Source: a virus (taxonomy: Duplodnaviria > Heunggongvirae > Uroviricota > Caudoviricetes). From it: a stretch of DNA of 64,000 nucleotides. Shown here piece after piece: positions 42,001 to 45,000 of this stretch; position 1 is the first letter of the stretch; each line of letters opens with the position of its first letter. Location of the stretch: the IMG/VR virus record IMGVR_UViG_2703718814_000005, positions 8,034 to 72,033 of that record; one strand, 5' to 3'. Made by a program: the position numbers.

Positions 42001-45000
42001 GGTAGTTCCGTTCCGATTCATGCTGGTTCTGGTTCACAGAATCGCGGGTCTGGATCCCCTTAACCCATTTCGGATCATTCGGGTCACTAATCCCTTCAAC
42101 AAATTCACCACGTGATGCAGCAAGCAACTTATCGGCGTCAGGCTGGCTGATATTGGCTGCCTGCATAATTTTGTTTACTTCGTCAGCGGTAACTTTTATC
42201 GGCTCTGGTTGTTCTGAATCTTCAGCGGTATCTACATTTTGCGGTAAGCCCGTGTATGTGCCATTTTTTCGGGCAAAATATTCTTCTTTTGTGATTTCAG
42301 TGGCGCCAGCAGCCAGTGCCTTATCCAGACCAGAAAGTTTGTTTGCGCGACCGTATTTTTCTCCGTCCTTATCTGCGAAGAGGAAATAGAACGGCCCCTC
42401 ACGCTCTACAGATGGTTCAGCTTCCGGCGCGGTTTCATTTTTTGGGATATCAGATACCTCAGTTTCCACTGCATCAGTTTGTGTTTCTGATGACTGGAGA
42501 ACATCAACAGTGCCCAGGTCTGTTTCTTCATTCTCAAACACGCCCTTTGTCGTCAGGTATTCGCAGATATATTTGTTCAGTGCTACGGGATCTTTGTGAA
42601 TGTCGATCGGACGCTCACGGACAAGGCCAAAAATAGTTTGGCGGTCGTAGCGAAGGGCATCAGGCTGTTTGCGCATTGATGCCGAGATACGCTTCCAGTC
42701 TTCGCGGTCGTTGTCGATAACTTCTTTTTTTGCCCAGCGATGGATGCTGCCGTCAATGTTTCCGGCATCCACATCACCAGGCCAGAGAGCGTAGGCCAGT
42801 TCGTCATCCAGTGTTTTCCATGTCTGCTTGTATTCGCGATGAATGGCAGCAATGACCGGGCTGATTTTTCCTGTTGAATTTTCAGTGTACTGTTGATTGG
42901 CTCTGGCGCGGGCGAGATCAACAACAGACGTGTATTTTCCGGTTTCCTTGCGTTCACCTTCGCGACGTTTTTTCCAGATGCGCATCTCTGCCTGAATTTC
43001 GGGCCATTTAGCACCAGGAATACATTTATGCTTAACCCACCCAATGGCGTGCAACTTAAGCTCCGGATACATGGCGTTAACTTCTGGCATTTTCATCAAC
43101 GCTTCAACGATATGTCCGTCGAATGTTGCCATGTCTTCCTGCAACAATTCCTGTGCGCTAATAACCATATCAACGGTGATGTTTTCACATGTGTCGAACT
43201 TAACCATGACAGCGTTCTGTACTTCAGGGGCCAGCTTGTCAAAAGTGACGTTCATCGGATCGGATTCAGTCTCAACCGGGACAAAAGAAGCAGACTCCTC
43301 ATCCCAGCGGTTTTCCTGCATATATTCAGCATCCCATGAATCGAGGGCAGGGCGGGGTATGCCAGGTTTATCCTCGCAGACAATAAATTTATAAGCGCAG
43401 TCCTGAGCAGCCGGATAATGTTCCAGGAATTGCCAGTGAAATTTTGCTCGAGCACGGCGTTCGTCGCCAGCTTCAATGGCTGTGGCTACAGCCACAGCGC
43501 CTTCTTCCCTTGTTGCCAGTTCGTCAGGAATAGCGGCGCAAATAAAGACTTTACTCATTTTGTTTTAACCTCATGACAGATTTAAGGATGAACAAATCCC
43601 TGCCATTGCTGGCATATAAGAATGAAACCGGATATTTATTACGGAACTGTTTTAAAGACCTGCCGGGATTTCGATATTATCCTGGTGAATAACTTTATCG
43701 ACCGGGTAACAGTTACCGGGAATTTTCTGTTCGGTTGCTGCAGTCATACACTCCTGCATTGTCCTGTGAACACTGACTGCAATATCAACTGGCACTCCGG
43801 AAACAAGAAAAACTGTCAGAACAAGCGCAAATGCTGAATTCATTGTGCACATCCTTTTGGCATCAGACGTAAACGAGCCAGCATTGAAACAATGCATATT
43901 TTATTTAATAGCTCCCGTTCTTGTTTTCTCTTGTTAATGGCATCTTCAGTAAATACAGGGTTACTGATAGTGACACCAATTTCAAAACAACCTTCAGACG
44001 TATTAACGTTTGGTAATAACGTTTTCATTATCGCGTCCTCAACAATGAATTTTGTGATGCAGTGCCTGGTGCCTCCAGGTGACGTTAACCAGTTAACAAT
44101 TAACGTCGGATACAGAGAATCCACCCATAACACTGTTTTTGGTTTTAACTGTTCCGCGTGCGCTTAGCCGCATTCACCGCATCACAAAATTCACTTTAAA
44201 AACGGCGGCAGAGCAGTCACGGAGTAAAACTGATACCGCCAAACGTCACCAGAAAATTGATAACAGAGGGCGTTGCAGCGGGGTTGTCACTTAAGCGTAT
44301 GGTCAACCTGACAACTCGGTGTCCTCAACGGGGAAGGAATAACCCCGCCATACTTACCGCCGCGCCATTTTGCGGGTTGCCACAACCGGAAGCGCACGGT
44401 CGAATTAAATTTAACGACACCGTACAGCGAGACGAACTTCGCCGTGCGCTTTCGTGTTGTGTGCCTGCTTTTAACCACGTCAGGCGAGGTGGTATCCTTA
44501 AAATCACCACAGTTTTAAGGATTCATTAAGCAATGTCGCAACCACCAATAAATCCGCTTAAGAACATGAAAATTGATTACTGGTATAAAGCGCTTACAGT
44601 TGTTGGCGCTGCGTTGTTTGTCTTTAATGGAACGTCTTTTTTTGACAGATATCCCGTTGTTCCATTGGGTTTTTTGTCCTCCGGCATCTTTTTTATTGGT
44701 TTGGGGGAGTGGATTAATCACCCTCTCAAAGTGAGATTTATTGGTCCTGGAGTTTGGACTCGTGGATATAATAGTTCTTCGTGCGCACTCGGTATCATCT
44801 TCGACATACTTGGTTGTTTCCTGATTGTTACAGGAGTCGTCAAGTTCTTCTGATGTAAAACCGCAAATGGGGCACGTAACGGGAATTTTGAAAAGCGTTT
44901 CTCAGGGTTCCAGAACAAAATTTTCTGCGGTCTGATTTTGCTTCTCATATTTGTGCTCCGCGTCATTGTGAGAGCACATTCTTATTCTGAGTGCCTGTTT

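Follow-up and report, generated by a model that had tools for sequence, protein, structure and literature searches.

A predicted inner-membrane protein gene lies antisense within an open frame of the early-left operon of enterobacterial prophages

The window analysed here is a stretch of 64,000 nucleotides (nt) from the IMG/VR virus record IMGVR_UViG_2703718814_000005 (positions 8,034 to 72,033 of the record; Caudoviricetes), and the region in question belongs to a Qin/Rac-like lambdoid prophage, of which it forms the immunity and early-left part. In the middle of the early-left operon, which is read from the minus strand, the plus strand carries an open reading frame (ORF) of 106 codons at 44533-44853, here called the plus gene, for a predicted three-helix inner-membrane protein of an unnamed family, while the codon-aligned frame opposite to it belongs to a longer operon ORF, here called the minus ORF. 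Judged from the comparison of sequences, independent lineages keep both frames open over the overlap more often than chance would allow. The overall reading that we favour, for which the case seems to us evenly balanced, is that the plus gene is a moron expressed in the lysogen and embedded in a translated ORF of the lytic operon. The first-pass annotation had noticed an opposite-strand membrane-protein gene at this place, and this observation was largely correct; its reading as a moron is supported as to kind, and the unexpected result is that the antisense frame appears to be selected to stay open.

The plus ORF starts with ATG and is preceded by an in-frame TAA at 44527-44529 and by the Shine-Dalgarno (SD) sequence AAGGA at 44517-44521, about 11-13 nt before the start, so that both the 106-codon ORF and its AAGGA were found as the first-pass annotation had described them. 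RefSeq labels it as the hypothetical protein WP_122990131.1 in a few genomes and leaves most genomes unannotated there, and no mention of WP_122990131 was found in a literature search. A search of 5.8 billion proteins gave 60 matches to its product, including full-length ones of 100-110 amino acids (aa) at 35-57% identity, and full-length homologs come from Yersinia enterocolitica, Herminiimonas, Reinekea and many metagenomes. In a profile search of 1.84 billion representatives the family grew to 484 cluster representatives (clusters defined at 50% identity), 212 of them at E<=1e-10, and nearly all of the 484 are stand-alone proteins of 95-115 aa. Membership was judged by a full-length alignment, the presence of both invariant motifs and three predicted helices, all of which were found in the plus protein. 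The invariant residues of the family alignment are Y16 W17 Y18 K19 A20 and G56, G58 E59 W60, N62 H63 P64, which fall in the motifs DYWYKA (residues 15-20) and GLGEWINHPL (residues 56-65). A scan with one genome per species gave 29 loci, ranging from Actinomycetes to Desulfobacterota, Burkholderiales, Pseudomonas, Shewanella, Arcobacter and Pantoea. Among five enterobacterial lineages, the changes (minimum counts) are distributed 68/39/124 over the three plus codon positions (chi-square p = 3e-11), a pattern of purifying selection acting on the plus frame; all 30 of 30 E. coli-type haplotypes retain an intact plus ORF. It is thus the plus frame that is conserved, and the minus-strand ORF at 44718-44966, which had been named beforehand as a possible conserved coding frame in its stead, lies in a different frame and is irrelevant here. 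These comparisons identify the plus ORF as a genuine and old gene for what is predicted to be a small inner-membrane protein. Its product has no above-threshold match in Pfam-A, NCBIfam, PHROGs or PADLOC, the sole match to a curated family being DUF7103 with E=0.24 and 11.8 bits, under the cut-off of 27, and a profile search of the PDB returned nothing.

The AlphaFold2 model of the plus protein (mean predicted local distance difference test score, pLDDT, 81.8) has hydrophobic helices at residues 17-32, 42-62 and 85-105, three in number where the first-pass annotation had noted two or three, and a beta hairpin at residues 65-79 in the second loop. The N-terminal segment and loop 2 hold the positive charges, and in some distant family members a Thr/Pro-rich linker and a PsbP-like domain follow helix 3. 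Both features argue for a topology with the N-terminus inside and the C-terminus outside, which would place the two invariant motifs at the cytoplasmic face of the membrane in the predicted model. Fold searches with the model gave nothing at E<=0.001, the best hits being generic helical bundles in the PDB (E=0.8) and in BFVD (E=0.019). Domain fusions in the longer family members were also considered as a clue to function; just the PsbP-like extracytoplasmic domain was found, which is informative on topology and not on function.

On the minus strand, the frame aligned codon by codon with the plus gene is open in the window from 45132 to 44515 except for a single TGA at 44902-44904, so the earlier impression that the operon strand does not code well over this segment was mistaken. 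The TGA is a rare derived allele, since 80 of 82 near-identical relatives have GGA there, and the usual state in E. coli is an uninterrupted minus ORF of 205 codons (P0064, phrog_35040; 1798 database members). The part of it that lies in the inserted cassette (44515-44901, minus strand, 128 codons) spans the whole plus gene together with 16 codons upstream and 6 downstream. The window lineage, which has two derived nonsense mutations on the minus strand, in the ydfA-like gene and in the 205-codon ORF, shares them with E. coli S19-651 and two JNEC strains. The length of the minus ORF differs among lineages, with 151 codons in the L010/L009 type, 164 in Yersinia, 151 in Pantoea, 221 in Escherichia sp., 205 in E. 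coli and 279-280 in the P0003 type. In the other enterobacterial lineages it starts with an ATG 20-40 codons ahead of the overlap, encloses the plus gene and ends 18-39 nt past the plus ATG, and in the lineages that are not of the window type it comes first among the ORFs that follow the repressor gene. An SD-like sequence before its start was seen by eye in an alignment of three lineages (L010, Yersinia and Pantoea). In the P0003 type (L126-L128; about 1017-1856 in L126, minus strand) the open minus frame extends from a ydfA-type leader across the cassette and on into ydfC without a change of frame, so that the ydfC product of this type may arise as a fusion or through internal initiation.

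An open codon-aligned antisense frame means that the plus gene has no TTA, CTA or TCA codons, and the number of antisense stops is indeed zero in each of six enterobacterial lineages, against 3.3-4.8 expected. The probability of finding none is 0.004-0.02 per lineage with the codon usage of phage genes or of the family, and 0.0008-0.004 with each gene's own use of A at the third position. The identity at third positions among the lineages is only 0.40-0.52, and about half of the codons are identical at conserved residues; the lineages are therefore effectively independent at synonymous sites. Leu and Ser codons switch repeatedly among TTG, CTT, CTC and CTG and among TCT, TCC, TCG and AGT, and never to TTA, CTA or TCA. 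For about four independent lineages the joint probability is roughly 1e-4 to 1e-9. Non-enterobacterial homologs of similar guanine-plus-cytosine (GC) content have 3-17 antisense stops, and 1 of 13 at GC 0.37-0.50 is free of them. Taken together, the joint probability and the stop-rich homologs elsewhere indicate that selection holds the antisense frame open in the prophage context.

The same data bear on two simpler explanations. In the first, function lies with the plus gene alone, the antisense frame would be open passively, as a shadow, and the calls of a minus ORF would be annotation artefacts. It is true that genes in general have this codon-aligned frame open more often than any other antisense frame, and among 42 proxy genes of the window 9.4% of the 106-codon windows are free of stops, although none of these genes is stop-free as a whole. 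This explanation also agrees with a minus product that is predicted to be disordered, with the lack of extra constraint on plus-synonymous sites, with three independent breaks of the minus ORF and with the fact that the NCBI Prokaryotic Genome Annotation Pipeline (PGAP) usually calls neither ORF. However, it has to account for six lineages that are stop-free despite near-saturated synonymous sites and the turnover of Leu and Ser codons, and even a chance of 0.094 per lineage gives only about 8e-5 for four independent lineages. Only one of the 13 non-enterobacterial members mentioned above is stop-free, the frame always extends to an ATG (SD-like in the three lineages read), and its part outside the overlap has more synonymous than nonsynonymous divergence; we therefore consider a mere shadow improbable. 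In the second, the roles are reversed: only the minus ORF (phrog_35040) would be a real gene, with the plus ORF as its shadow. Of the two ORFs the minus one is longer, and it is called in the 1798 database members and in phage HannyBb, whose annotation has the minus ORF only. But the plus protein is kept across phyla where the antisense frame is full of stops, the variation in the overlap follows the plus codon positions, and no minus-ORF homologs occur in places that lack the plus gene. On these grounds the minus-only explanation is refuted, and we leave it hardly any probability.

Whether the minus ORF is itself a protein-coding gene was judged from its part outside the overlap. The segment just beyond the 3' end of the plus gene (44857-44901, minus strand) encodes the conserved peptide ETLFKIPVTCPICGF, which belongs to the minus ORF only. 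The 19 minus codons directly upstream of the overlap (44854-44910), which read EPGETLFKIPVTCPICGFT in the common allele, are conserved as EPGE..F.IP..CP[IV]CGF. Here the proportion of synonymous differences (pS) exceeds that of nonsynonymous ones (pN) in 6 of 6 lineage pairs, for example 0.80 vs 0.28 and 0.77 vs 0.20, and the changes fall 15/14/26 on the minus codon positions. A terminator or a structured RNA, which was considered as another cause of the conservation of this 3' flank, was rejected because no RNA structure was found on either strand (z-scores +1.3 and +0.7) and there is no Rfam match. Thus, as far as the substitution pattern tells, the minus ORF evolves like coding sequence outside the overlap. 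In the overlap, on the other hand, no extra constraint on plus-synonymous sites was found (about 50% codon identity at conserved residues), from which it seems that this part has been selected for being translatable and not for the sequence of its product. Moreover, the minus ORF is broken at three independent sites among the 30 E. coli-type haplotypes. No homologs of it were found outside the cassette, apart from fragments and frameshifted calls. A zinc ribbon suggested by the CPxCG motif is not supported, since there is no conserved second Cys pair, the motif is absent in Pantoea and the model is disordered. Similarly, an N-like antiterminator was considered as the identity of the first early-left ORF and was dropped, because no arginine-rich motif was seen on inspection.

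The segment is a mosaic cassette. Compared with K-12/Tritos-type phages by BLAST, the 517 bp from 44473 to 44989 replace ydfC and the 3' end of ydfB, which bears on the question, raised beforehand, whether the segment is an insertion relative to Qin of E. coli K-12. Phage Tritos, with the K-12-like order ydfA-ydfB-ydfC-dicF, is homologous to the window at 44000-44472 and 44990-45285, and the breakpoints lie at 44472/44473 and 44989/44990. The plus gene is missing from the related phages Tritos and PPompW. Presence or absence among close phages and sharp mosaic boundaries, by which a moron is recognised, are thus both seen for the cassette; the difference in GC content is small, with 0.40-0.43 in the cassette vs 0.45-0.54 in the flanks. 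The cassette occurs in 806 of 5426 complete E. coli genomes (about 15%), almost always at >=99% identity, and PGAP calls neither of the two ORFs in the majority of these 806, so that about 0.4 kb is left blank. A degraded copy is present in Shigella flexneri SFBU0723 (L039, 3980-4300), where indels break both the plus and the minus frame. In P0013-type phages a tRNA gene on the early-left strand directly follows the cassette, namely tRNA-Asn(GTT) in L010 (3952-4033, minus strand) and tRNA-Gly(CCC) in L009 (5802-5875, minus strand).

In all enterobacterial cases the plus gene lies directly downstream of the prophage repressor gene, convergent with it and antisense to the early-left genes, and this placement is shared by six lineages on differing phage backbones. 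The Yersinia locus has an HTH_3 repressor with a YdaS-like Cro, three P0013-type phage loci have LexA-like S24 repressors and RdgC or YfdP among the early genes, and further loci are found in Pantoea rodasii, in a Rac-like prophage of Escherichia sp. with KilR and in two E. coli types. Scans of IMG/VR also gave the P0003-type loci L126-L128, the variants L129/L130 and one P0013-type locus, L208. In enterobacterial phages the plus gene therefore occupies the classical slot for lysogenic-conversion and exclusion genes. The earlier suggestion of a membrane-protein gene at the site of exclusion genes holds as to the site, now seen as an inserted opposite-strand gene at the repressor-proximal accessory slot of six lineages, and its exclusion function stays tentative. 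PPompW/Stx2a phages carry a different opposite-strand ORF of 77 aa in the same slot, upstream of the dicF leader (L207, 1990-2223, plus strand), so that the slot looks like a hot spot for backward-facing cassettes; the antisense frame of this ORF is not open. In Arcobacter, three identical copies of a gene-bearing element lie near a CI/Cro-like pair. In Arcobacter sp. Pygsuia-1 the three stretches (L029, L030 and L031) are 100% identical over at least 8.3 kb in one chromosome, which suggests a multi-copy prophage or a transposable phage. Elsewhere the gene is found in arrays of small same-strand ORFs resembling cassette arrays, in an integrase island or beside unrelated genes, and no conserved partner gene was found around the 29 non-enterobacterial loci. 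These mobile contexts, with no neighbour common to the loci outside the Desulfocapsaceae, indicate that the family is a single-gene accessory module of mobile elements.

It could be objected that the protein has a physiological role in the membrane, such as in stress, transport or envelope homeostasis, and that prophages carry it as cargo. The spread of the family over many phyla with chromosomal copies would fit such a role, as would the extracytoplasmic PsbP-like domains of some members and the Desulfocapsaceae, in which the gene shows vertical synteny with hydrogenase, MauE and rhodanese genes, a neighbourhood that we judged uninformative. Against it, the spread is patchy and the contexts are mostly mobile, being prophage immunity regions (enterobacteria and Arcobacter), islands with an integrase, or arrays of small cassettes. 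Unrelated phage backbones, moreover, share the repressor-adjacent position; we regard a physiological role as rather unlikely.

At the left end of the cassette, in all enterobacterial lineages, lies a 37-nt element, TGCCTGCTTTTAACCACGTCAGGCGAGGTGGTATCC (44462-44498), whose conservation was followed in four of them. It is invariant in these lineages, whose synonymous sites are near-saturated, and it is absent from Tritos. Read on the plus strand, it contains a candidate extended -10 promoter, with TTAACC at 44471-44476, a spacer of 16-17 nt and TGg TATCCT at 44490-44498. The element may mark a boundary of recombination or act as a promoter or as part of a leader. In addition, a perfect 10-bp inverted repeat, ATCCTTAAAA (9 nt) TTTTAAGGAT, spans 44494-44522 (arms at 44494-44503 and 44513-44522) and overlaps the candidate -10, the SD and the stop codon of the minus ORF. 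Other lineages retain the repeat with its loop-proximal pair changed from A-T to G-C, and it could be an operator or an RNA hairpin.

Based on this arrangement, the favoured reading of a lysogen-expressed moron would work as follows. In the lysogen the repressor would shut the pL-like promoter, and the plus gene would be transcribed from its own promoter-like element. After derepression the early-left transcript would cross the cassette head-on, and the minus ORF would be read through the whole plus gene. In Rho-dependent polarity, translation shields the downstream genes of an operon. The open translated frame could thus keep ribosomes coupled to RNA polymerase and thereby avoid polarity on dicF, dicB, exo, xis and int, and alternatively or additionally the minus ORF might yield a disordered early protein. 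Convergent transcription and antisense RNA would silence the moron during the lytic phase. The timing of expression and the anti-polarity role are inferred, and so is the defence function, in which the plus protein would act at the inner membrane to protect the lysogen, through superinfection exclusion or in the manner of abortive infection. This last part is a guess from position, mobility and the stand-alone nature of the protein, not from homology, and we think it tentative, with clearly less than an even chance. In the prophage of the window the minus-strand ORFs are decaying (TGA at 44902 and the ydfA stop) but the plus gene has stayed whole, which would be expected of a gene useful to the lysogen.

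Several results weigh against this reading. On the transcriptional side, the candidate plus promoter is a weak one, at 8/12 plus TG, which a simple promoter scan did not call, the 37-nt element is 97% identical upstream of ydfC in the cassette-less PPompW phages (L207, 2872-2909), no terminator was found after the plus gene, and the plus SD stands at the above 11-13 nt from the ATG. On the side of the minus ORF, its product is predicted to be disordered (residues 49-205, mean pLDDT 39 in AlphaFold2), and the overlap lacks the extra constraint on plus-synonymous sites noted above. The argument from polarity is weakened by the dicBF operon itself, in which a long stretch around dicF is left untranslated and is tolerated anyway (PMC5069750). 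As for defence, no homology of the plus protein to a known exclusion or defence protein was found with PADLOC, PHROGs and the fold searches, no defence genes lie consistently near the family loci, and a divergent branch of the family, that in the Desulfocapsaceae, sits in conserved chromosomal synteny.

The antisense arrangement also admits two explanations in which the minus strand restrains the plus protein. The protein may be a membrane toxin or abortive-infection effector, checked by the convergent early-left transcript or ORF in an antisense arrangement resembling either a type I system or SieB/Esc, and not a blocker of entry. It is small, hydrophobic and stand-alone, it would be covered in full by an antisense transcript once the operon fires, an inverted repeat lies over its SD, and the family occurs in integron-like arrays and islands where toxin-antitoxin (TA) and defence genes are common. 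Yet with 106 aa, three helices and conserved polar motifs it does not resemble type I toxins, Rfam shows no antitoxin RNA, and there is no conserved partner elsewhere. Furthermore, 15% of E. coli genomes carry an intact plus gene, also where the antisense operon has decayed, which argues against strong toxicity that depends on a partner, and we give such a toxin a low probability. Alternatively, the two strands of the same 320 bp may form a gene pair that moves between prophages as one unit, coding for the membrane protein of the lysogenic phase and for the first, or an early, protein of the lytic early-left operon, and whose transcription and translation are mutually exclusive, the minus product or its translation switching off or neutralising the membrane protein and so preventing self-exclusion or killing on induction, in a SieB/Esc-like but antisense manner. 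We hold this to be unlikely, although somewhat less so than the toxin.

The remaining features of the locus are those of the operon around the cassette. On the minus strand the order is repressor, pL-like promoter, ydfA-like, ydfB-like, DicF, dicB, ydfD, exonuclease VIII, xis and int. By context, the repressor gene (45440-45847, minus strand) is of the DicA/CI-like helix-turn-helix type, and a promoter scan gave the pL/dicBp-like promoter of the early-left operon at 45324-45352 (minus strand; TTGACG-17 nt-TAAATT). The ydfA-like gene (45092-45247, minus strand) has an internal stop in the window, which is derived, as 81 of 82 near-identical relatives have G at 45190. The YdfB-like N-terminal part (44905-45132, minus strand) is fused in frame to the cassette ORF, with its ATG at 45132. 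Downstream in the same operon lie the DicF small RNA (sRNA) gene (44203-44254, minus strand; Rfam, 72.5 bits) and, by context, dicB (43840-44028, minus strand), so that the plus gene is located between the ydfA/ydfB-like ORFs and dicF, where the first-pass annotation had put it. Separately, a sok antitoxin RNA (Rfam RF01794, 115 bits) is found at 49459-49633 (plus strand), and by this match a putative hok/sok-type module is present on the replication/nin side of the same prophage.

The plus gene thus belongs to a sizeable unannotated membrane-protein family (about 480 clusters) that is carried as single genes by prophages, islands and cassette arrays, and a copy is present in about 15% of complete E. 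coli genomes, for the most part without a RefSeq annotation. The cassette is one of few long bacterial antisense overlaps with comparative support rather than ribosome profiling (Ribo-seq) of one strain, and it suggests a rule for the backward insertion of a moron into an essential phage operon without breaking it.

Among known systems, the closest in kind are the lambdoid morons and exclusion genes, such as rexB, sieB of lambda and P22 and stk of 933W, which like the plus gene are accessory membrane-protein genes adjacent to the repressor, patchy in relatives and presumably expressed in the lysogen. The plus gene has no sequence or fold similarity to them, and it is antisense to and embedded in an operon ORF, whereas rexB, sieB and stk are on the same strand as cI/pL. 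T4 Imm, P22 SieA and HK97 gp15 are likewise short, stand-alone, phage-encoded inner-membrane proteins with one or several passes, but the plus family shows no homology to them and is also common outside phages. The plus gene resembles type I TA systems such as hok/sok in coding for a small membrane protein and in having an mRNA complementary to an opposite-strand transcript. It differs in being twice as long, with three helices and conserved polar motifs, and in having a whole operon mRNA as its antisense partner; no RNA family was found in 44255-45440 at E<=1 with Rfam. Because of the 106 aa, the three helices and the absence of an sRNA partner, it is not taken as a type I toxin. Class I holins such as lambda S105 are also phage-encoded proteins of about 105 aa with three transmembrane helices. 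The plus protein, however, ends in ...VTGVVKFF without a charged C-terminal tail, has the opposite predicted topology (N-in, C-out) and gives no sequence match to them, and since it lacks the charged tail and its gene sits in the immunity and early-left region rather than in a lysis cassette, it is not taken as a holin. Finally, the debated antisense overlapping genes of E. coli O157:H7 (for example ano, and the three novel ones of PMC9927249; see also PMC5960689 and bioRxiv 10.1101/2020.11.18.388249) resemble the cassette in having opposite-strand ORFs, one fully embedded in the other. Those cases rest mainly on Ribo-seq of one strain (PMC9927249; PMC5960689; bioRxiv 10.1101/2020.11.18.388249), and the cassette locus is not mentioned in the E. 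coli overlapping-gene preprint among them (bioRxiv 10.1101/2020.11.18.388249). In contrast to them, the cassette has comparative evidence, its embedded gene is old and widely conserved, and the pair moves as a prophage cassette. The arrangement joins two known kinds, the moron and the antisense overlapping gene, around an uncharacterised protein family.

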